In this document: piece by piece, positions 8,884 to 20,431 of the stretch
Layout of the letters: each line of letters starts with the position of its first letter
How positions within the stretch are numbered: position 1 is the stretch's first letter
Source: a virus
Virus record (IMG/VR): IMGVR_UViG_3300035698_016128
Span: 1-64,000 of that record
Strand: one strand, 5' to 3'
DNA length: 64,000 nucleotides
The notes under the pieces: model-generated
Seen by the model: the letters and a program-made list of their open reading frames with translations, nothing else
Told to the model about the DNA's origin: nothing
Database searches by the model: none
Program-made: the position numbers and the translations under genes

Positions 8884-10467
8884 CTAGCGTATTAAGGTGT
8901 GTTCAATTAGGTCTTTCCAAAACCTGCTATTCTTATATACATCAATGTGTTCATCATAATATTGTAAGTATCTTTTATGGCTAATGGTTGACAACATATA
9001 ATGTGCTATCGCTTGCCATGGGTAGCTTCGAATAACGTTTTGAAAATATTCTTCAGCAACATCTAGCTTGCCCATTCTCACATTTGCATTTTCTATAAAA
9101 TTAACCATGATGTTCATGTAGTATGCGTACTCTTCTATCTCCACAGGGTTAATACCCGGAGCCCGTATGTTGCACCGAGATGCCACATGGTCAGAGTAAC
9201 TATCATCCACAAAGTAATCGTTCTCCTTACATATTTCAAAAAGCCTACTTCCTGCAATTGGTATCGCTATGAATATGTATGCCCAATCAATATTCAGTTC
9301 AATTAAAAAATTAAGAGTCTCAGTTCTATGCTCATCGAGTTCTCCTGGAATCCCAATCACAATGAATACATGGATTCTCATTTTATATTTTCTTAATATT
9401 GAAACCACTTCTTTTATCTTCCTGGTAGTCAACGGCTTATCAATGACCTTTCTCAAAACATGATCTGAGCCAGACTCGATGGCAAGCACAACCACCTTAA
9501 CCCCTGCATCACTTAGTGCCATAGCGATATCATCATCTATCTTATACGCAGCAAGTCCGTTTGGAAATTCAACATGAATGCCTTTCTCTTTTATTAACTG
9601 CAATATCCTTATAGCTCTTTCTTTATTATATAGGAAATGATCATCTTCAACAATCAACAGGGTCATACCATAGTTGGTAATATAGTGATCTATTGTTTCG
9701 GCAACACGCTCGAACGACATCATTCTGACCTTCTTGCCATGGAGCCTACCGTTGGCGCAGAATACACAGTTGAAGGGACACCCCCTTGATGTGTGTATGC
9801 TCACTTCGACCTTCTTGATTGATGGGTCTTTCTCTATATAAGATCTTCCATTGTATTTTCTTATATTTATATATGAAAAATCTATTAATGGGATATCATC
9901 AATCTCATATACCATATCGTATTGGGGAATTTGTTCCTGAGCCAACGACGCCTTGGTTATCCATGCAGGACTGATAGAGGGCAGGTCTTCTATTTCAACA
10001 TCTGCCTTAAGCATCTTCCGTACTGGCATCTCGCCTTCCCCAAAACATATTGCATCAATGTCAGGGTACTCTTCAAATAACTCTTTATATAGATTTGTTG
10101 CCAACCCACCACCAACAATAATTGGAACATCAAAATATTTCTTTATCCTACTGACCATACTCATGTGGGGGAAGCTAGTATTGAACAGAGCAGATATGCA
10201 TACGTAATCAGGTTCGAACATCAACATAGCCATTACAATAGAATCAAAGACTACGCCATGCAGAGTTCCACAATGTAGATTTTCAAGGATTATCTTATTA
10301 CAATCAAAAATTTCAAACTCGCACGAATCACTCTTGCCCACATACGATATTACTGATAACGCACCATATGGCGGAGTGAGGAAATACTTCTTTTGGCCAG
10401 GACCCTTTGGCACATAGCTATCAAAGGAGCCATGAGGTGGGATTATAAATAGAATTTTTTTAGCCAA
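8884..10467 (-). CDS. Cobalamin-binding (class B) radical SAM protein
   Basis: PPYGALSV and IIVGGGLAT B12-domain motifs, GEGE, TSRGCPFNCVFC, EDDHF, IESGS. Confidence 0.92.
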   Translation of the reverse strand: MAKKILFIIPPHGSFDSYVPKGPGQKKYFLTPPYGALSVISYVGKSDSCEFEIFDCNKIILENLHCGTLHGVVFDSIVMAMLMFEPDYVCISALFNTSFPHMSMVSRIKKYFDVPIIVGGGLATNLYKELFEEYPDIDAICFGEGEMPVRKMLKADVEIEDLPSISPAWITKASLAQEQIPQYDMVYEIDDIPLIDFSYINIRKYNGRSYIEKDPSIKKVEVSIHTSRGCPFNCVFCANGRLHGKKVRMMSFERVAETIDHYITNYGMTLLIVEDDHFLYNKERAIRILQLIKEKGIHVEFPNGLAAYKIDDDIAMALSDAGVKVVVLAIESGSDHVLRKVIDKPLTTRKIKEVVSILRKYKMRIHVFIVIGIPGELDEHRTETLNFLIELNIDWAYIFIAIPIAGSRLFEICKENDYFVDDSYSDHVASRCNIRAPGINPVEIEEYAYYMNIMVNFIENANVRMGKLDVAEEYFQNVIRSYPWQAIAHYMLSTISHKRYLQYYDEHIDVYKNSRFWKDLIEHTLIR

Positions 10468-11737: not shown

Positions 11738-12434
11738 GTAAGTCCACCCATCCCAGAGCTAATTCCTGATTGTCAATTCCCTTCAACTCTTTATATTTCA
11801 TGTAACGTGTGAGCGCCTCGTCAATGCCCAACCATTTGTCAGCAGGAAGGTAAACGCCAAATGGCCCCGAAGAGAACTTGGTGAACATAAAGTCTGTGCC
11901 TTTACATCTGTCCTCATGCATAGCCTGATTCACTAACTGAAAACGATTATAACCAGCCACATGAAGGTAGCTGAATATCTCATAGTAATCAAAGCGGGAT
12001 AACTCGAATGATACAAACTTTGGTCGAAAACTTTTAATATCGGCGAGCAATTGTTTGGCAACTATTATATCGTTGCCCTCTATGTCCACCTTCATATAGT
12101 ATGGTTCGCCAAAACGATATAATTCCTTCAGGGATATCGCCCGGATTAACACTTCGATTGCCGTACTGCCATCCCATGTAACTTTGTTTTTTATGCAACT
12201 GCTCCAATCTGTATTTTGAGGGTGAATGTAAAATGCCACATGCCCTTGGTTATTGGAAATTGCGTTGTTCAATAGCACGAGCCTTTCACTCAATATCTCT
12301 TTTGCGAACCTTATCCTTCCAAAATTTGCGAGATTAGGATTTGCCTCAACAGCAATTACCTTAAATCCCTTATGAAGATAATACGCAGTGTCATCGCCGT
12401 TATGGAACCCTAAATCAAAAATATATTCGCTCAT
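11721..12434 (-). CDS. FkbM-family methyltransferase
   Basis: IFDLGFHNGD, VIAVEANP and MKVDIEG motifs. Confidence 0.88.
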   Translation of the reverse strand: MSEYIFDLGFHNGDDTAYYLHKGFKVIAVEANPNLANFGRIRFAKEILSERLVLLNNAISNNQGHVAFYIHPQNTDWSSCIKNKVTWDGSTAIEVLIRAISLKELYRFGEPYYMKVDIEGNDIIVAKQLLADIKSFRPKFVSFELSRFDYYEIFSYLHVAGYNRFQLVNQAMHEDRCKGTDFMFTKFSSGPFGVYLPADKWLGIDEALTRYMKYKELKGIDNQELALGWVDLHATCE

Positions 12435-13381
12435 ATATTCAACACCGCCCCTCTGAAACCAATATTTAAAAGCTTTTCCCTGAGTACATTCTTGTGCGCC
12501 ATTGCCGTTATGACCACAGTGGCACTATCGTCAAGCGATGCAAGCACACTCTCATCGTTAACCTTCAACCCATTTACCGTAAGCGTTTGCTTATAAGGAT
12601 TATTATCAACTAAAATCTTATTTGGGAAATCAGAAAATAATTTATTAATAAACATAAACTCTCTTCCAATTCCCCAAAAACATACCTGCCTATCTTTTGA
12701 TAAAGTGTTGACTGCCTTCTCTATCTTACGAACCCCATGATCCAAATACCATTTGATGCTATTTCTGAGCCGAAAATATTTACGATCAATGGCTGGTAAT
12801 TTACAATCGGTATTTCTCTGTAGCAACACAGTCATAACAGGCATCTGCATTGCCTCGCTCATGATGGGCATGCTCCCGCCCTGCTCAACCTTCACCATCC
12901 CAAAACCATTCAGCCTCGCAAGGTACAATAGATGAAGTAAATCAAAGTGATGAATATGCTCTCTTATTATTACCCAATATGGTTTGAAGAAATCGTACTC
13001 AATATACCTTGAGGCATCAGGTGCGCCTATGCAGACATATTCATTGTCCTTATTGAAGAATGTTTCCAAAACATCTGAATGCTCAATCATCTGGTCAAAC
13101 ACACCTACTGATTTAGAATTTCCAATGAAATTTTTTATCTGCTCCTCTCTGACATGATCCATTCTCTTCTCAGAGGCATTCTGATTACAACTGGTATACT
13201 CATGCAGATAATATTCTTGAAGCTCATTGAGTTCTTCATTTATGAGATCATTAAATACATGCCCGCAGCGATCGCAACATACCAACCGCACCACATTGTA
13301 CAATAGTGAACCGTCAAACCTATCGCATGGTATCACGCATATGGTAGTAATGCTCTTTTCCTTGCATATTGGACAATTCAT
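12431..13381 (-). CDS. Methyltransferase-like protein (Zn-binding N-terminus, Rossmann-like C-terminus) lacking the SAM-binding core
   Basis: CPIC...CDRCG, MIEH, APDA...EHIHHF and WGIG...LVDNN are present; there is no LDxGxG motif I. Start placed at the ATGA overlap at 13381. Confidence 0.7.
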   Translation of the reverse strand: MNCPICKEKSITTICVIPCDRFDGSLLYNVVRLVCCDRCGHVFNDLINEELNELQEYYLHEYTSCNQNASEKRMDHVREEQIKNFIGNSKSVGVFDQMIEHSDVLETFFNKDNEYVCIGAPDASRYIEYDFFKPYWVIIREHIHHFDLLHLLYLARLNGFGMVKVEQGGSMPIMSEAMQMPVMTVLLQRNTDCKLPAIDRKYFRLRNSIKWYLDHGVRKIEKAVNTLSKDRQVCFWGIGREFMFINKLFSDFPNKILVDNNPYKQTLTVNGLKVNDESVLASLDDSATVVITAMAHKNVLREKLLNIGFRGAVLNI

Positions 13382-14346
13382 ATTTTCTCCAGAAGTCTTC
13401 CTGCAAGGGCATCTATATTCTCGGGTTGACCAGCAACTAACTGATTGCAACTCGAACACGGATTAAGAAGGTACCTGTTCCCAGCAAGCATCACTCGGCG
13501 CATACGCCTGAAGCGTTCGCTATTCCATACTTCCTTGACGCTCTTGCCAAGCACGTCCCCAATAACAAGCTTCCTGTTCCAATCAAGAAAACAGGCGCTC
13601 ACCTTGCCGTCGTGATTTATGCAGAAGGAGTAGAATATATAAGGACATACGTCTACACTTGTAAGCGGTTGCCCATACACTCCAACATCAGAATTAACTT
13701 TCACATCGTTCATCTCAAAATCATTCCAGCAATTCATGACATGCTCTATCGCAATGCCATCGGAAATAGGTTTGAATATATGAATGAACTTCTGCTGGTC
13801 TTCTTCGGAAATGACATCGCCATTTATCTTAATAAATATAGTACAATTCCCTCGGTTCTCGTAGAGATGCTGTATGTTATCCACATAACGCTGAAAATCA
13901 ATTGTAACGCCACTGAAGCGCTTGTACTGGTCAGCGGTCACCCCGTTGACGGAAACGTTAATACGGTCTATTCCTGCCCCTATCAGGTCCATATTTAACA
14001 CAGGGTTGAACAAACTTCCGTTCGTGGTGGTGTCAATGTCATCGGCCACACCTTTATCCTTAGCCTCCTTCACCATATCTGCAAAGCGGGGATTGAGAAG
14101 AGGCTCGCCAAAGGCATAAAGCCTCAGCGTTTTAATTGGAGTATCAAACTCTTGTATATCGCGCATGATCTTCTGATACAGCCGCCACTCCATGATACCC
14201 TTGCTCGGCATCTTCTTACCAAACTGAAAGCAGAACTTACACTTGAAGTTGCATACAGAGGCAGGGTCCACATTTATTACAAACGGGGTAGCCAACGGCA
14301 ACGCAGGACCAAGCGGCACTTTGCCTTCTTCGCGTATTCTTTTCAT
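13378..14346 (-). CDS. Radical SAM protein with a SPASM/twitch domain
   Basis: DPASVCNFKCKFC, FGEPLLNP, CPYIF...VSACFLDW...CSSC; ATGA-coupled start at 14346. Confidence 0.92.
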   Translation of the reverse strand: MKRIREEGKVPLGPALPLATPFVINVDPASVCNFKCKFCFQFGKKMPSKGIMEWRLYQKIMRDIQEFDTPIKTLRLYAFGEPLLNPRFADMVKEAKDKGVADDIDTTTNGSLFNPVLNMDLIGAGIDRINVSVNGVTADQYKRFSGVTIDFQRYVDNIQHLYENRGNCTIFIKINGDVISEEDQQKFIHIFKPISDGIAIEHVMNCWNDFEMNDVKVNSDVGVYGQPLTSVDVCPYIFYSFCINHDGKVSACFLDWNRKLVIGDVLGKSVKEVWNSERFRRMRRVMLAGNRYLLNPCSSCNQLVAGQPENIDALAGRLLEKI

Positions 14347-14993
14347 ATTATTTCTGGTAACTCCCAATTGGGCTTCAGGAAGGCTTCTTTTTTATTGTAC
14401 CTGCCGGGTTGAAAGAAGTTACCGAATATAAATAAATCAGGAAGTAAGACTATATCATCAGGGAATTGCCCCCTCAACCTGACAGCATAACGACCATCAT
14501 CCCATTTATGATTATTGCCAAATCTATTTTGTTTTAAAATTTCTCCTTTCACAATATACATTCCCATTCCAATATTACATACTCGAACATCTTCAATAGA
14601 AGAGATTCGTATTGGCGTCCACGGATGCGGTTCCGAATCGTCACCAGTCGGAATGCTATCGCCTCTGTAAACAGAGAACATTATTATTTTGGCAGTCTGC
14701 TCTCTTATTACATCGAAGAATTCTGGCTCATACATATCATCATCACCCATGAAACCATAATAATCATCATCAATGATTTCTTGGGTATCAGCAAAATCAT
14801 CTATTTTTTTATAGCACATGTCCGTAGGCAATAATTCATCAGTACGAACAGGGTGTATCCAATCTCTATCAAAGCGTGCTTCTGAATCGTGCCCTATGAC
14901 AGGATGCCACTCGATACCCATGGGCTCCAAATAATGAATTAGAGTCGGTATAAGATGCGTTCTAAAGAACGGAGTGATTATGTGTATTTTCAT
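14343..14993 (-). CDS. GT-A fold glycosyltransferase-like protein (paralog B)
   Basis: IHIITPFFR N-terminus and YYGFMGDDD DxD motif; tandem paralog of 15005-15658. Confidence 0.75.
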   Translation of the reverse strand: MKIHIITPFFRTHLIPTLIHYLEPMGIEWHPVIGHDSEARFDRDWIHPVRTDELLPTDMCYKKIDDFADTQEIIDDDYYGFMGDDDMYEPEFFDVIREQTAKIIMFSVYRGDSIPTGDDSEPHPWTPIRISSIEDVRVCNIGMGMYIVKGEILKQNRFGNNHKWDDGRYAVRLRGQFPDDIVLLPDLFIFGNFFQPGRYNKKEAFLKPNWELPEII

Positions 14994-15004
14994 ATGATAG
15001 TTTC

Positions 15005-15658
15005 CTAACCTATGATTTGTGGCAATTCCCATGTGGGTTTTAAAAATGCTTCCTTGTTGGTAAATCTTCCTAATTGAAAATAATTAAAAAATGAATACAT
15101 ATCTGGTAAAAGATGTATTTCATTTGGATATGTATTTCTCAGGCGCTCTATATAATGCCCATCGTTACAGGTTGCCGAATTACCGAATCTATGCTTTTTA
15201 AAAATCTCACCTTTGATTATATATTGCGATAAATGAATGTGGCCTGTTCGTATATCTTTTAATCCACTAATCTTAAGAGTGGAGCATGGGTGCTTCGTAG
15301 GCGCATTATCTCTTGGAACGCTATCGCCTCTGTACAATGAGCAAACAATTATCTTGGCAGTCTGTTCTCTTATTACATCAAAAAATCCTGGCTCATACAT
15401 ATCATCGTCACACATAAAGCAATAGTAATCGCCGTCAATGATTTCCTGAGTGTCGGCAAAATCATTAATTTTACGATAGCACATGTCCGTAGGCAATAAT
15501 TCAATAACCTTAACCGGGTGAATCCAATCTCTATCGAATGGAATATCTTCCTTCGGCGCAACTACGGGGTGCCACTCGATACCCATAGGTTCTAAATGTT
15601 GAATAAGGGTATTCACCAAGTGTGTCCTGTAGAAAGGAGTGATTATGTGAATCTTCAT
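15005..15658 (-). CDS. GT-A fold glycosyltransferase-like protein (paralog A)
   Basis: IHIITPFYR and YYCFMCDDD DxD motif. Confidence 0.75.
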   Translation of the reverse strand: MKIHIITPFYRTHLVNTLIQHLEPMGIEWHPVVAPKEDIPFDRDWIHPVKVIELLPTDMCYRKINDFADTQEIIDGDYYCFMCDDDMYEPGFFDVIREQTAKIIVCSLYRGDSVPRDNAPTKHPCSTLKISGLKDIRTGHIHLSQYIIKGEIFKKHRFGNSATCNDGHYIERLRNTYPNEIHLLPDMYSFFNYFQLGRFTNKEAFLKPTWELPQIIG

Positions 15659-15660
15659 TA

Positions 15661-16398
15661 TTACCCTCTTTTATTAAAGGCATTATCGTGATACACATAT
15701 GTGACAGGCTCCATATAAGGCAGAAGGCCGAACTTCTTTCTTATCAGGCCGCACCACCAACTGTCGCTACCATAATGGTTACTGTGTTCTCCAATTTTAA
15801 TGTGATTGATAAGTTCTCGCCACATGACACAGCACGAGAAATTATTATAGCAACACTCAACGGGGGTAGTGGGAATGCGGGGGTCAGTGTATGGGACATG
15901 CAGGAAGTCATGAAGTTTTTCTCTGGAATTTTCCTTTTTCTTTCCAGCCCAGTAAACAGTTTTATTTGCATACAACACGAGGGGGGTTATAGAACTATAC
16001 GTAGGATTTGCCTTCAATCCATCCACAAGCTTCTGTAGCCAATCTGGGTTTTCCTCTGGTATGTACGCATCATCGTTGAATAGGCAAATGAATTGCCCAT
16101 CGGATACCCTGAAGGCCCGCATGATATTTGCACCATACAGCAATTGGGCATCTCCAAAAACAACTTTTATCTTTTCTGATTGGATACTTTCGAGGTATGC
16201 CTTTAGCTCGTCATTGGGGCTGGCATCATCAGAAATGCATATTTCAAAATCAGGGTAGGATGTATAATTCAAGATACTCTCTATACATCTCTTTGCTTCA
16301 TTTGGAAGATTGAAGGTGGGAATTAAAATTGAGACCTTACCAGCGACACCAGACTTAGCTACGTCAACTTCTTCAAACATTACAACCTCCTTATACAT
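15661..16398 (-). CDS. GT2-family glycosyltransferase
   Basis: VSILIPTFN, ISDDAS, ICLFNDD and SDSWWC motifs. Confidence 0.9.
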   Translation of the reverse strand: MYKEVVMFEEVDVAKSGVAGKVSILIPTFNLPNEAKRCIESILNYTSYPDFEICISDDASPNDELKAYLESIQSEKIKVVFGDAQLLYGANIMRAFRVSDGQFICLFNDDAYIPEENPDWLQKLVDGLKANPTYSSITPLVLYANKTVYWAGKKKENSREKLHDFLHVPYTDPRIPTTPVECCYNNFSCCVMWRELINHIKIGEHSNHYGSDSWWCGLIRKKFGLLPYMEPVTYVYHDNAFNKRG

Positions 16399-16410
16399 TT
16401 GAGGTTTATT

Positions 16411-17352
16411 CTACGCCTTATTACTATTGGCGTATTTCTTTACCTGCCGGAGGATGACCCGGATGCCGGTTTCCTCTTCAACCTTCGTTCGCATTGAGTC
16501 AACAAGCGCCTGACTGCTGGCACCGTATGGGTTGAGAGTTGCCTCCTTGCACCCAAGTTTGCCAAGCTTCGCAAGCAATTCTATGTTGACATTCGTTATA
16601 GCATCATTGAACGCAAAACTCAAACCATGTTCGCTCAACGCAGTGGCGATACTTATGGCCCGTTGGCGGTCAAAACAGAAGGCTTCATCCCCAAAATAAA
16701 AACTCTTAATGCCATATGCCTTGACCACGTTGATGACTTCGTTCATGATGCGCTTCACACCGAATGTCTTCAGCCCCGGACAAAGCCACGTGTTGCGGTA
16801 GGGGCTTCCACGGGTGGACATAATCATCACAGCCTTCTTCTCATTGAGCTTCCGGTTGTAGCTTCCCATGTCCACAAGGTGACGGCTCGGAAGGGGCAGT
16901 TCATTCAGGTTCCGTACTTCAGCTTTGTACACGTTCTTTGCTTCCGAAGTGCGGTTGTGAAAAGAGTCCTGCAGGAACAGGCGCATTGCATTCTCAGCTT
17001 CTCCGCGGATGACCACATCAAACAGATCGTCGTTGGCAAATGTGGGAACATCCTTGCTTGGGCCTGAGCCACAAACAATGATGCTACAGTTTTTATTTAC
17101 CTCACGACACTGCTGTGCAATTTCTCTTGCAAGGGCGAGCCGCTTCCTGTCCACGTACATCACGTACAGAACGCAGTGACCGAAGCTCCACATGTTTCGC
17201 TCGATGCCATTGAGGTCGTTGACTCTGACCTTCAGGCCATGCTTCTCAAGCCGGGGGGCAAGCTGGAGCAGAAACATAGGGGGATCAAGTCGCCTACGGA
17301 ATACATTTGAAAATGGCAGATTGATAAGTTCTACTCTCATGGCGTGCCTCAC
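16411..17352 (-). CDS. Degenerate cobalamin-binding radical SAM homolog (cluster motif lost, barrel truncated)
   Basis: PPMFLLQLA, RGEAE, LPLPSRHL and FYFGDEAF align with class B radical SAM landmarks, but STRGSPYRNTWLC replaces TSRGCPxxCxFC. Confidence 0.8.
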   Translation of the reverse strand: MRHAMRVELINLPFSNVFRRRLDPPMFLLQLAPRLEKHGLKVRVNDLNGIERNMWSFGHCVLYVMYVDRKRLALAREIAQQCREVNKNCSIIVCGSGPSKDVPTFANDDLFDVVIRGEAENAMRLFLQDSFHNRTSEAKNVYKAEVRNLNELPLPSRHLVDMGSYNRKLNEKKAVMIMSTRGSPYRNTWLCPGLKTFGVKRIMNEVINVVKAYGIKSFYFGDEAFCFDRQRAISIATALSEHGLSFAFNDAITNVNIELLAKLGKLGCKEATLNPYGASSQALVDSMRTKVEEETGIRVILRQVKKYANSNKA

Positions 17353-17633
17353 ACATTTACGATTTTTTGTGCTCCTTTTCTCTTCGTACTCTTGCCAAGA
17401 ATCTTGGCAGTTTCCTTAGCCGCACCAACGAAGCTCACATTTACGACATCCCCCAAACGCAACACAACATCTTCCCTCATGTTAATTGCATTCTTCTTTA
17501 TGGCACCACTTGGCAAAGTAAGATCATAGGTACCATCCGCATTCTTGGAATATATGGTAGCATCCGTGATGTTATCAATCTGTTCACTCTTCGAAACTTC
17601 ACGGATAAGTCCTAACAGGTTAGTCTGTGGCAT
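17349..17633 (-). CDS. Small tail-associated protein (OB-fold-like)
   Basis: ATIYSKNADGTYDLTL...LGDVVNV pattern; coupled to its neighbours. Confidence 0.55.
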   Translation of the reverse strand: MPQTNLLGLIREVSKSEQIDNITDATIYSKNADGTYDLTLPSGAIKKNAINMREDVVLRLGDVVNVSFVGAAKETAKILGKSTKRKGAQKIVNV

Positions 17634-17944
17634 TATTCGCCCTCCTCATGTTGTTCAATGCCAACAAAGGAGAAAACACCTTGCCGTGAAATATTGATCC
17701 TATGCTTCGTTATGATATGATTGCCTGCAATATTTAGGGCGCTTTCGTTTACTGAAGCCACAGAAGCAATGTCTGTGCTGTCCTTAAATGGCGCACGCAC
17801 TTCCCGCCCCCTCACCTTGTACCACTTGCTGTCGATGAAGTGCTTCCCACGCTGTACGGCAATATGCTCGGTGACAATGAGCGGATCACTGATCTCTGAG
17901 GCTTCCTTATCGCCAAGGCCACGAATACAAATAATATCAATCAT
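17633..17944 (-). CDS. Small tail-tip-associated protein
   Basis: DIICIRGLGDK...ISDPLI motif resembles a prophage tail-region family recalled from memory; GGGGA SD. Confidence 0.55.
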   Translation of the reverse strand: MIDIICIRGLGDKEASEISDPLIVTEHIAVQRGKHFIDSKWYKVRGREVRAPFKDSTDIASVASVNESALNIAGNHIITKHRINISRQGVFSFVGIEQHEEGE

Positions 17945-17959
17945 GACATCCCCTGATAA

Positions 17960-18385
17960 TTATTCGGGAGGTAGATTCTTCCCCTTGCCCGTAGACGGAT
18001 TAAGCCTATAGCCAATACCGCAACTCGGGCACCTGTAGATAAACTCCTTGCCGCCACAACAAGGCTTCTTCTTTACGAGGTCAATTTTACACCTGCTGCA
18101 CTTGACTCCAATAGAACCACCGGCCTCTCCAGCTTCTTGAGGTTGCTCAGTCTCCCCCCCAATAACATCCATCTTTTCTGGAACCTTACTGAACATTCTT
18201 TGAATGCCACCCCACATGGCATTACACCAATGCGAAACAGAAACTACATTCTCGAGATCAATGGCTGGGATATTCTCCCTATCCTTTATTTCGAAGGAGA
18301 TGCTACTCAAATAGTTTCCTGTGAACTCAAACTTGACTTTGAAAAAATCATCCTCAATGTTCCTCACAACCTTTTCATCGGCCAT
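17960..18385 (-). CDS. Hypothetical protein with a C-terminal Zn-ribbon (CxxC..CCG..CPxCG)
   Basis: CSRC...PCCGG...RCPSCG; AGGAG SD. Confidence 0.7.
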   Translation of the reverse strand: MADEKVVRNIEDDFFKVKFEFTGNYLSSISFEIKDRENIPAIDLENVVSVSHWCNAMWGGIQRMFSKVPEKMDVIGGETEQPQEAGEAGGSIGVKCSRCKIDLVKKKPCCGGKEFIYRCPSCGIGYRLNPSTGKGKNLPPE

Positions 18386-18406
18386 ACCTTAACTCCTTTT
18401 TATAAT

Positions 18407-20431
18407 TTACGATAATATACCCTCAACTTCGCCAACAAAAAATGCGGAAGTTCTAAGATCAGGGACATATTCCCAAGTATACAACGGTTCACCAACTGGC
18501 GCAAGTGCGCCGCCAGTTAAAATCCAATTTGTATATGATAGGACATATGTATTATTCCTGCTAGTGGCAATAGCAAAACCAGGATTGCCAGCATCAAAAG
18601 ACAATAAGCATGCCACTTCATTATTTATATCAAGCGGGTCAGGTAGCCCTTCAGCTAATGACAGATGTGTACCCAAGGCATTTGTACATTGAAAATGATC
18701 AGACCCCCACTTATAAAAATAAGACATACCTGCTTCAGTTTTCAATATTGAACTTTGTAAAACCCAAGATCCATTATCCGGATTTTCTCCAGTTGGTGTT
18801 CCAGGCTCAGAAAATGAAAACCCATGAGCTTGTATTTGTGAATATGTAACTGTATGTTCCCAATCAAAAGCATCAATATAAAAATCATATCTTGTTCTCG
18901 TTATTTTATTGGCGTATTTGTCATCGCCCATTACAACTTCTTGTTTTGAAGCTGTGAAGTTATTAGTCGAAGCTTTATTATCACAATAGGTTCCAAAATT
19001 CAACCAATACCAGCCAGCGTGCCTATTAGTCCACCCTTCAGAGTTTTCTATTGTTCGTATTGGGCTTCCTACCGAATAATCATTCGATAAAGCATTCACA
19101 GAAGCACGATATATATCTATACCGGGAGACCATATAGCCGTTCCACTTTGGGTTGATGGGGCGGAAACGGTATACTGTTGAGTCTCACCATATGGAGCAG
19201 TACATTCCTCACAATCTAAAAGAGCAACATCGGCTGTACACCCCGTACCAGATTTATAATGTGTTTGCTTATACCCATTGCTCCCTCTATAGCCAACGAA
19301 ATACACCTGCGGGGTTCCAGTTTTTTCTAAATACATACCAAAAGGAATAGGCCCGCCAAACTCTTGACACCCAGTTACGTTTACTGCCCCAGGAGTGATT
19401 GTAAATGTAATATTTGAATCACATACTGCTGGATCAGTAAAACATGGGTCTGTTCTAGGTGGCGTGTTTATACATACATCATACGGATGTGTTTCGTAAC
19501 AAGTATGAGGTACTTCTACCCACGAGGTACAAACAAAATCATGATACAGCCCGCAGTAAAGACTACCACATTCCTCAATAGTGCTACAATTATGTCCCGG
19601 CCAACCATCACAATATCCAGCGGCACACTTTGTTATATAATAATCAATTGCTTCTGGTTGCCATTCATCGCCAAAACAACTTCTAGGATCGCTTGTATAA
19701 ACGCAGCTATTGGTAAAAACATAATCATTTGGTTTTGGTATTGTCGAAGTAACTGGGTCGCCATCATACGGATAGGAATCGCCATCACAATTTGTGGCCC
19801 TATAGTGATCGTCATCGACCTGCTGATACAACCCATAATAATATATATTCTCAACAGTCAAGCTGTATGTAATCTCATTTACATTAACAATGACAAAAGC
19901 ATATTTACCAGCAATGTATTCACCATCGTACGAATTCATCTGTAAGGTGACACCTATACGAAAAGGGTAGCCATCAGCAAAGTCAATAGAAAGACATGTA
20001 TTTACTCCATTCCAATTAGAAACACTTCCACCATATTCATTTATATATATCTGTCTAATGGCATATTCTATATCTTTACTTTTATATTGTTCGTTGAATC
20101 TTATTCTTAAATCGCCACTTTCATAATATGCCATACAGAAAAACGAATGGCACTTCTTAGCACCGTCCGCATGCCCAACAACTCGTGTAGGATTTACATA
20201 TTCATCAACCTCTATTAATACAAGATCGCCAACTGCATACACAGAACGAGGCGAACTGGGATCAACACCGCTATTACAATTATAGACCCAAGGAAGTATA
20301 AACTCTTCTGCATCATCCTCTCCAGGTCTGGTGAACGATACAGTAACGCTGATTTCTTCACTGACTTCGATCACATTAGCTGTGCGAAATAAAACCTTAC
20401 ACACATTATCATATGGATTTACAAGCGCCAT
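18407..20431 (-). CDS. Cys-rich tail-tip protein, candidate receptor-binding protein
   Basis: N-terminal OB-like segment (YNCN...VGDLVLIE...VVGHADGAKKC); dense Cys in the central region; tail-tip position. Confidence 0.6.
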   Translation of the reverse strand: MALVNPYDNVCKVLFRTANVIEVSEEISVTVSFTRPGEDDAEEFILPWVYNCNSGVDPSSPRSVYAVGDLVLIEVDEYVNPTRVVGHADGAKKCHSFFCMAYYESGDLRIRFNEQYKSKDIEYAIRQIYINEYGGSVSNWNGVNTCLSIDFADGYPFRIGVTLQMNSYDGEYIAGKYAFVIVNVNEITYSLTVENIYYYGLYQQVDDDHYRATNCDGDSYPYDGDPVTSTIPKPNDYVFTNSCVYTSDPRSCFGDEWQPEAIDYYITKCAAGYCDGWPGHNCSTIEECGSLYCGLYHDFVCTSWVEVPHTCYETHPYDVCINTPPRTDPCFTDPAVCDSNITFTITPGAVNVTGCQEFGGPIPFGMYLEKTGTPQVYFVGYRGSNGYKQTHYKSGTGCTADVALLDCEECTAPYGETQQYTVSAPSTQSGTAIWSPGIDIYRASVNALSNDYSVGSPIRTIENSEGWTNRHAGWYWLNFGTYCDNKASTNNFTASKQEVVMGDDKYANKITRTRYDFYIDAFDWEHTVTYSQIQAHGFSFSEPGTPTGENPDNGSWVLQSSILKTEAGMSYFYKWGSDHFQCTNALGTHLSLAEGLPDPLDINNEVACLLSFDAGNPGFAIATSRNNTYVLSYTNWILTGGALAPVGEPLYTWEYVPDLRTSAFFVGEVEGILS

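Follow-up and report, generated by a model that had tools for sequence, protein, structure and literature searches.

The 64,000-nucleotide (nt) stretch of DNA analyzed here (positions 1 to 64,000 of IMG/VR virus record IMGVR_UViG_3300035698_016128; hereafter the window) is part of a 124-kb linear record that is about 75% complete. The sequencing runs that contain it are salt-lake metagenomes, and there is no RNA among the runs listed for it. On its minus strand, directly 3' of a block of phage tail genes, lies the gene at 16411-17340, which encodes a protein built like a class-B radical S-adenosylmethionine (SAM) enzyme. An earlier interpretation made from the letters of the window (the sequence-only reading) had singled out this gene as an intact radical SAM pseudoenzyme whose cluster-binding motif is erased. 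The comparisons reported below show that the protein derives from a class-B radical SAM enzyme, is specific to phages and kept under selection, and that the loss happened once. The features of the locus are collected in Table 1.

An intact gene without the radical SAM signature

The reading frame at 16411-17352 is open throughout, with zero stops or frameshifts, and what had first been observed about the gene was right apart from its strand, which is minus, its start codon and its upstream junction. Homologs in all loci begin M-R-x-E-L-I-N, continuing -L-P-F, and a GAGG Shine-Dalgarno sequence precedes ATG 17340, so that this ATG is probably the true start and the protein probably 309 amino acids (aa) long. 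The junction with the upstream 94-aa open reading frame (ORF), at 17349-17352, reads GTGA and not ATGA, and with the ATG start the two frames do not overlap at all. The proposed coupling to the tail genes stands as far as position is concerned, the gene lying directly 3' of them, and with the probable ATG start an 8-nt gap takes the place of the GTGA overlap. A consensus-only scan for terminators and promoters gave no convincing terminator on the minus strand in the stretch from the tail genes to this gene.

The SAM-cleaving [4Fe-4S] cluster of radical SAM enzymes needs three Cys ligands. Read directly from codons 16806-16780, the residues in place of the cysteine motif are S-P-Y-R-N-T-W-L-C, and the sequence RGSPYRNTWLC occupies the site of CxxxCxxC in relatives. 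In the CX3CX3C register used by AprD4, the first two positions are Ser and Asn and have thus been lost, and the third, C191 (313-aa numbering), is retained and invariant. The B12-domain and barrel landmarks were said to line up with an intact paralog at 8884-10467, and they do: BLASTP paired RGSPYRNTWLCPG with RGCPFNCVFCANG (22% identity, E value 2e-8). The same comparison set LNPYGASS opposite AIESGS, in agreement with the described alteration of the ESGS motif. The other SAM-binding elements are gone as well; ESGS has become N-x-x-G, the GxPGE-type motif of strand 5 has become G-I-R-V-I-L-R, and strand 6 is absent.

Profile searches gave the same picture. The paralog scores 81 bits against Pfam Radical_SAM and 48 bits against B12-binding; the 309-aa protein reaches 17.6 bits against B12-binding, below the cut-off of 32.1, and has no match to Radical_SAM. 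Within the family of homologs described below, the three-cysteine motif is missing from all 18 members, at most one of its three positions being Cys. None of 17 members reaches the Radical_SAM threshold (PF04055, 29.5 bits; best single match, E 0.096), and PF02310, the B12-binding profile with its threshold of 32.1 bits, gives sub-threshold matches in 11 of 17 (best E 1.5e-4) and none above the cut-off. Because two of the three cysteines, the ribose/SAM motif and everything past strand 5 have been lost, the canonical SAM-cleaving [4Fe-4S] site cannot assemble in the 309-aa protein, and the absence of this capacity had been correctly recognized. Since the protein has neither the cluster motif nor the SAM motifs and stays below the Radical_SAM threshold of Pfam, we file it as a derivative of the radical SAM superfamily and not as a member of it.

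Table 1. Positions of the gene, its parts and its neighbors in the window
Feature	Coordinates	Strand	Basis or remark
Cluster-less class-B radical-SAM-fold coding sequence	16411..17340	-	309 aa from ATG 17340; GTG 17352 would add 4 residues (313 aa)
GAGG Shine-Dalgarno sequence	17347..17350	-	Sequence reading; 6 nt 5' of ATG 17340; overlaps TGA 17351-17349 of the 94-aa ORF
N-terminal Rossmann-like ("B12-binding-like") domain, residues 1-145	16906..17340	-	AlphaFold2 model, structure alignment, sub-threshold PF02310, conservation
Truncated radical-SAM-type barrel, residues 164-297	16450..16851	-	Strands 1-5 plus four helices; net basic
Replaced cluster-binding motif S-P-Y-R-N-T-W-L-C	16780..16806	-	Codons 16806-16780; family signature RGSP[YF]-x3-W-[LMI]-C
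Replaced ribose/SAM motif N-P-Y-G-A-S-S	16513..16533	-	G-[IV]-E-S-G-S in relatives; in the family only Asn is invariant
Intact B12-domain radical SAM paralog, motif CPFNCVFC	8884..10467	-	Comparison reference
GT2 glycosyltransferase, directly downstream of the gene	15661..16398	-	Pfam PF00535, E 1.6e-23
Small conserved ORFs of 94, 103 and 141 aa, which separate the gene from the ~674-aa tail protein	17349..18385	-	Syntenic in related phages

Fold, family and selection

AlphaFold2 modelled the protein from a 50-sequence alignment with a predicted local distance difference test (pLDDT) score of 92.6 and a predicted template modelling (pTM) score of 0.89. The Rossmann-like domain is five-stranded in the model (strands at residues 2-7, 37-42, 58-62, 86-90 and 109-114) and carries the invariant loops LLQLAP, RVNDLNG, Y-x-D, CGSGPSK and RGE-x-E. 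The second domain (residues 168-297 of the model) corresponds to most of the partial (beta/alpha)6 triosephosphate isomerase (TIM) barrel of radical SAM enzymes: it has homologous strands 1-5 and four helices, which can be superposed on radical SAM cores with Z scores of up to 24, but no sixth unit. That the barrel stops early is therefore borne out: the model ends just past strand 5, where 32 intact relatives carry 64-109 further residues. When the missing C-terminal part was run as a profile against the six-frame translation of the window, it matched nothing but the intact paralog, so that at this sensitivity the gene is not split.

As in class-B radical SAM enzymes, a Rossmann-like N-terminal domain stands against the barrel, and residues 1-301 of the protein can be aligned with OxsB, TsrM and TokK. 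VIA-align gave Z scores of 24.1 for OxsB, 23.8 for AprD4 and 22.8 for TsrM over about 290 residues, and of 19.5-19.6 for MgmA, TokK and CysS; Foldseek likewise ranked class-B radical SAM enzymes first, with E values of 1e-12 to TsrM, AprD4 and OxsB. Among solved structures, the family profile matches only AprD4 (E 7e-9), the radical SAM 1,2-diol dehydratase of apramycin biosynthesis (6FD2). The likeness to AprD4 lies in the Rossmann-like domain and barrel, which align over 294 residues, and in the CX3CX3C spacing, which matches the S-x3-N-x3-C of the 309-aa protein. At 454 aa, AprD4 retains the three cysteines and a full barrel followed by a C-terminal part, whereas the phage protein is without two of the cysteines, the SAM motifs and the part beyond strand 5. 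AprD4 acts on a sugar and has the same N-terminal domain without binding cobalamin (PMC12931638), and "B12 domain" is therefore used here as a label for a fold and not as evidence of B12 binding. The AprD4 family NF033070 was the top NCBIfam match of the 309-aa protein, at 32.6 bits against a cut-off of 500, which places the protein outside that family.

The Class I cobalamin-dependent radical SAM enzymes OxsB, TsrM, TokK, CysS and MgmA/QCMT (5UL4, 6WTF, 7KDY, 9N1B and 9CCB) share with the protein the two-domain architecture and the placement of the domains relative to each other (Z 19.5-24.1). These enzymes bind a [4Fe-4S] cluster, SAM and cobalamin and have C-terminal substrate-capping domains, whereas the phage family has neither the cluster motif, the full barrel nor the C-terminal domain. 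The Rossmann landmark loops of the family also occur in its sequence-nearest intact relatives. NCBIfam also contains a curated radical-SAM-like family that by its name is "pseudo-SAM/SPASM protein" (TIGR04347), whose members are not known to carry the canonical cluster motif. It belongs to another branch, of the SPASM type and not the B12-domain type, and is about 390 aa long; it matches the SPASM enzymes of the window and not the 309-aa protein, and there is no specific homology between the two. In the literature on radical SAM pseudoenzymes and motif-less proteins we found no truncated cluster-less class-B family, nor one in phages.

A search of 5.8 billion proteins returned 16 homologs, which come from metagenomes or viral contigs, are 285-328 aa long and show 47-75% identity. 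A full HMMER pass over 1.84 billion representatives added one more (P0019) at 44% identity; the next matches, at lower scores, are only about 30% identical and about 420-440 aa long. The family thus has 18 members of about 310 aa, with identities of 44-77% (47-77% without P0019). In a 17-sequence alignment R-G-S-P-[YF]-x3-W-[LMI]-C is invariant and the three-cysteine motif occurs in none, so the loss of the motif, which the sequence-only reading had proposed to follow through homologs, is common to the whole family (18/18). Among the nearest 150 representatives, by comparison, CxxxCxxC is present in 144, and the six exceptions are two intein insertions, one CX5CX2C variant, two members of the family itself (one a 77-aa fragment) and one independent loss. 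The two intein carriers, P0042 and P0109, are intact B12-domain radical SAM relatives with the intein exactly inside CxxxCxxC; Pfam identifies the inserts as Intein_splicing plus Hint, with an HNH endonuclease within one, and the absence of the motif in these proteins is only apparent.

The family was found only on phage and metagenome contigs. GenBank phages gave no match to positions 14000-20000 by megablast or to the protein by tblastn, PHROGs holds no family for the protein, and a signature-pattern search of one genome for each of 185,579 species found no relatives. A look for P0020, the intact relative nearest to the family, on viral contigs gave nothing. In a search for longer proteins the family itself did not turn up in fused form; the only fusions were of distant intact relatives with glycosyltransferase domains.

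In a maximum-likelihood tree, made by quick search only, the 18 members are monophyletic with a Shimodaira-Hasegawa-like approximate likelihood ratio test (SH-aLRT) value of 100, on a stem of 2.05 substitutions per site and with internal branches of 0.1-0.5. This shape points to one loss, fast change and then constraint. Nei-Gojobori counts on eleven coding sequences are consistent with such constraint: the proportion of synonymous differences (pS) is at least 0.76, and so saturated, and that of nonsynonymous differences (pN) is 0.12-0.36 in all 14 pairs listed, which indicates purifying selection, the ratio dN/dS itself having no numeric value at saturated dS. The length of the ORF is constant among family members. 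Loss of residues essential to the ancestral chemistry, together with purifying selection, marks the protein as a putative pseudoenzyme. Contigs from the salt-lake runs X1 and X2 cover 16780-16806 with 0 differences. A decaying pseudogene or an assembly error, that is, recent damage or an artefact in a single contig, has nothing in its favor and can be given almost no credence, with the same motif replacement and length in 18 divergent sequences from many samples, with synonymous sites saturated while 50-77% of the amino acids are kept, and with the contigs of two runs identical across the motif; neutral decay and sequencing error are both excluded on these grounds.

A constant slot between tail genes and a variable sugar cassette

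Twelve related loci had flanks long enough for a comparison of synteny. In these loci a tail protein of about 674-700 aa and ORFs of 141, 103 and 94 aa precede the homolog, the last two ORFs being missing in locus L009. The next enzyme gene 3' of the homolog is a glycosyltransferase in every locus with enough flank, of type GT2 in most loci and of type GT9 in L015; an HNH gene comes between the homolog and GT2 in L009, and a 138-aa ORF in L010. The description of the gene as heading a tailoring cluster directly after the tail genes is accordingly supported both in the window and in the related loci. A conserved 376-aa tail protein leads to the same contigs: all five IMG/VR contigs that carry it also have the homolog, and used as a query it returned only contigs already carrying the homolog.

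Downstream of the GT2 gene, the cassette of the window encodes a GT2-like 217-aa protein, a SPASM radical SAM enzyme, a possible sugar C-methyltransferase, GT1 and FkbM proteins, the intact B12 radical SAM enzyme, a methyltransferase, a sulfotransferase and a second SPASM enzyme. The cassette of L002 has two sulfotransferases. Cassette content varies between loci while the slot of the homolog is constant. Nor do the related phages conserve the intact paralog at 8884-10467, which means that this paralog is not an obligate partner. None of the cassette proteins has a membrane segment, which argues against a lipid-linked glycan and fits a soluble target.

Several neighbors deserve separate mention. 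Two cassette proteins without a Pfam match were compared by protein-language-model features, which provide leads only: the product of 15005-15658 (minus strand) resembles a viral GT2 cluster with a score of 0.98, and that of 12431-13459 (minus strand) resembles class I or sugar C-methyltransferases (Methyltransf_23/14) with a score of 0.88. The 674-aa tail protein (18407-20431, minus strand) contains 25 cysteines and is conserved only in part: most loci give 23-28% identity along 180-300 residues, L002 gives 29% along 691 residues and L008 gives 68%; such patchy conservation is as expected for a receptor-binding protein. The 94-aa ORF (17352-17633, minus strand) was modelled at low confidence (pLDDT 64.7) as a small oligonucleotide/oligosaccharide-binding (OB) barrel, with structural matches to generic OB folds (IF1/eIF1A, Z about 9) and to the OB domains of phage and pyocin spikes (Z about 7). 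It could be a piece of the baseplate hub or spike, matches of this kind being too weak to give it a name.

In L009 the gene between the homolog and GT2 (L009:2470-3093, plus strand) is of the HNH/AP2 homing-endonuclease type, and this is the sole locus in which a mobile gene splits the pair. The segment that follows (L009:3101-8659, plus strand) encodes two GT2 proteins, a 363-aa intact B12-type radical SAM enzyme, a methyltransferase, a GT11 enzyme of the fucosyltransferase type and a GDP-mannose 4,6-dehydratase, a combination that points to a fucose-type sugar as the product. Distant intact relatives of the family are fused to GT1 or GT2 domains. In P0169 (918 aa) and P0170 (1394 aa), an intact B12-domain radical SAM enzyme is naturally joined to glycosyltransferase domains, one protein having GT4/GT1 and the other GT2 plus TPR; the GT2 plus TPR fusion uses CX3CX3C as AprD4 does.

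Possible roles of the altered cleft

The residues that the family has fixed for itself lie where the barrel strands end (after strand 1, RGSP, W, C and K; after strand 2, F-G-D-E-x-F; after strand 3, F-x-F-N-D; after strand 4, L-N) and in the Rossmann loops (N-D-L-N-G, Y-x-D, C-G-S-G-P-S-K and R-G-E-x-E). Invariant positions make up 28 of 80 at the C-terminal ends of parallel strands, the ligand face of both domains as set by secondary-structure positions and not by coordinates, against 38 of 229 elsewhere (odds ratio 2.7, p 8.5e-4). The 309-aa protein has a net charge of +14, beside a tail protein of about -48 and other neighbors that are neutral or acidic. Across the family the net charge runs from +1 to +17 and is located in the half-barrel and the C-terminal tail, the barrel region being net +2 to +11 in 18 of 18 members. 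The concentration of invariants on the ligand face and the basic half-barrel suggest that a pocket for an anionic ligand is maintained, whether for binding or for catalysis. The sequence-only reading had listed a non-catalytic scaffold, a cobalamin-binding protein, a regulator and a virion component as possible functions, any of which may apply; the enrichment on the ligand face, together with a new invariant signature at the old cluster loop in place of drift, leans away from an inert one.

On balance, we favor a role for the protein in a tail-linked glycosylation cassette, of which it would be a constant part that does no radical chemistry and either binds a ligand or has gained a new catalytic activity; this role is inferred. 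The cleft between the Rossmann domain and the half-barrel, which formerly held cofactor, cluster and SAM, would now present RGSP-x3-W-x-C-x3-K, FGDExF, FxFND and LN on a basic surface. It would bind an anionic ligand, which might be a sugar (as nucleotide-sugar, phospho-sugar or sulfo-sugar) or an acidic segment of a tail protein, and the protein would either present this ligand to the adjacent glycosyltransferase or itself catalyze a first, non-radical step. Since the downstream sugar chemistry varies while the protein and the tail proteins are constant, a constant acceptor or an early common intermediate would be a likelier ligand than a late, phage-specific sugar.

Several points weigh against this proposal. 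The alignment behind the AlphaFold2 model held 32 intact relatives, which biases the model toward the ancestral fold. The enrichment of invariants on the ligand face rests on secondary structure and could in part reflect the stability of the fold, and the net positive charge is modest (+1 to +6) in some members. Adjacency to a glycosyltransferase does not by itself demonstrate physical or functional coupling, and the link of the gene to the tail module is no looser than its link to the sugar cassette, so that a role in tail assembly fits the synteny equally well.

A more specific version, in which the protein is a new enzyme, we consider less probable, though it carries real weight. The old cluster and SAM pocket would then have been rebuilt as a cofactor-independent or cobalamin-only active site. 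The enzyme would carry out the constant opening step of a cassette that is otherwise hypervariable, by priming either a common sugar intermediate or a tail protein. Such an activity, which the protein may have acquired, is left open by the polar residues that are invariant on the modelled ligand face.

The position of the gene is equally what would be seen if it encoded a protein of the tail module, such as an assembly factor, a chaperone or a minor virion component, and its place beside the sugar cassette were incidental. The ~674-aa tail protein and three small conserved ORFs (141, 103 and 94 aa) always precede the gene, its Shine-Dalgarno sequence overlaps the stop codon of the ORF upstream, each contig with the 376-aa tail protein carries it, and its conservation (50-77%) parallels that of the small tail-side ORFs; a basic protein beside a very acidic tail protein is also in keeping with this explanation. 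It is nevertheless an unlikely one, as no similarity of the protein to a PHROG or virion protein was found, an enzyme-type two-domain cleft with invariant polar residues would be unusual in a structural protein, and a glycosyltransferase comes next in all loci.

Slightly less probable again is a cobalamin protein, which would be either a cluster-free, polar (TsrM-like) methyl carrier or methyltransferase, or a B12-holding subunit for a B12-dependent enzyme of the cassette. The Rossmann landmark loops are kept and are invariant in the family (CGSGPSK and RGE-x-E), PF02310 matches appear below threshold in 11 of 17 members, and methyltransferases are abundant in the cassettes. The invariant Y-x-D loop aligns with R69 of TsrM and W76 of TokK, which are lower-axial residues in those enzymes (PMC12931638). 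Yet the closest solved relative by sequence, AprD4, has the domain and no cobalamin, every member falls below the PF02310 cut-off, the GG-x-H loop of relatives has become GSGPSK, the canonical SAM-binding elements are gone, and most related cassettes contain no intact B12 radical SAM partner.

We regard it as very improbable that the protein is still a radical enzyme, with a [4Fe-4S] cluster held by non-canonical cysteines or supplied in trans. A cluster on a non-canonical cysteine set is known from Dph2 and ThiC, and four cysteines are invariant or nearly so in the family (C60, C82 and C191 invariant, C94 near-invariant; numbering as for C191), with C191 corresponding to the third Cys of the AprD4-type register. 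However, by the topology of the model, taken without coordinates, the C191 loop is a long way from C60 and C82, which are on the N-terminal ("bottom") side of the Rossmann sheet, and no member reaches the Radical_SAM threshold of Pfam. The ribose motif, the GxPGE-type motif of strand 5, strand 6 and the C-terminal cap, on which SAM binding and closure of the site depend, are all absent.

The iron-sulfur and SAM site is what defines radical SAM enzymes. That one lineage has dropped this site and a third of the barrel, and has then remained under long purifying selection, indicates that the class-B scaffold is reusable for other work, which may be ligand binding, an adaptor function or new catalysis. 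As the one constant gene between tail genes and a variable sugar-tailoring cassette, the gene offers a practical marker for such cassettes in metagenomes, and it is the obvious first target for asking whether these uncultured salt-lake phages glycosylate their tails.

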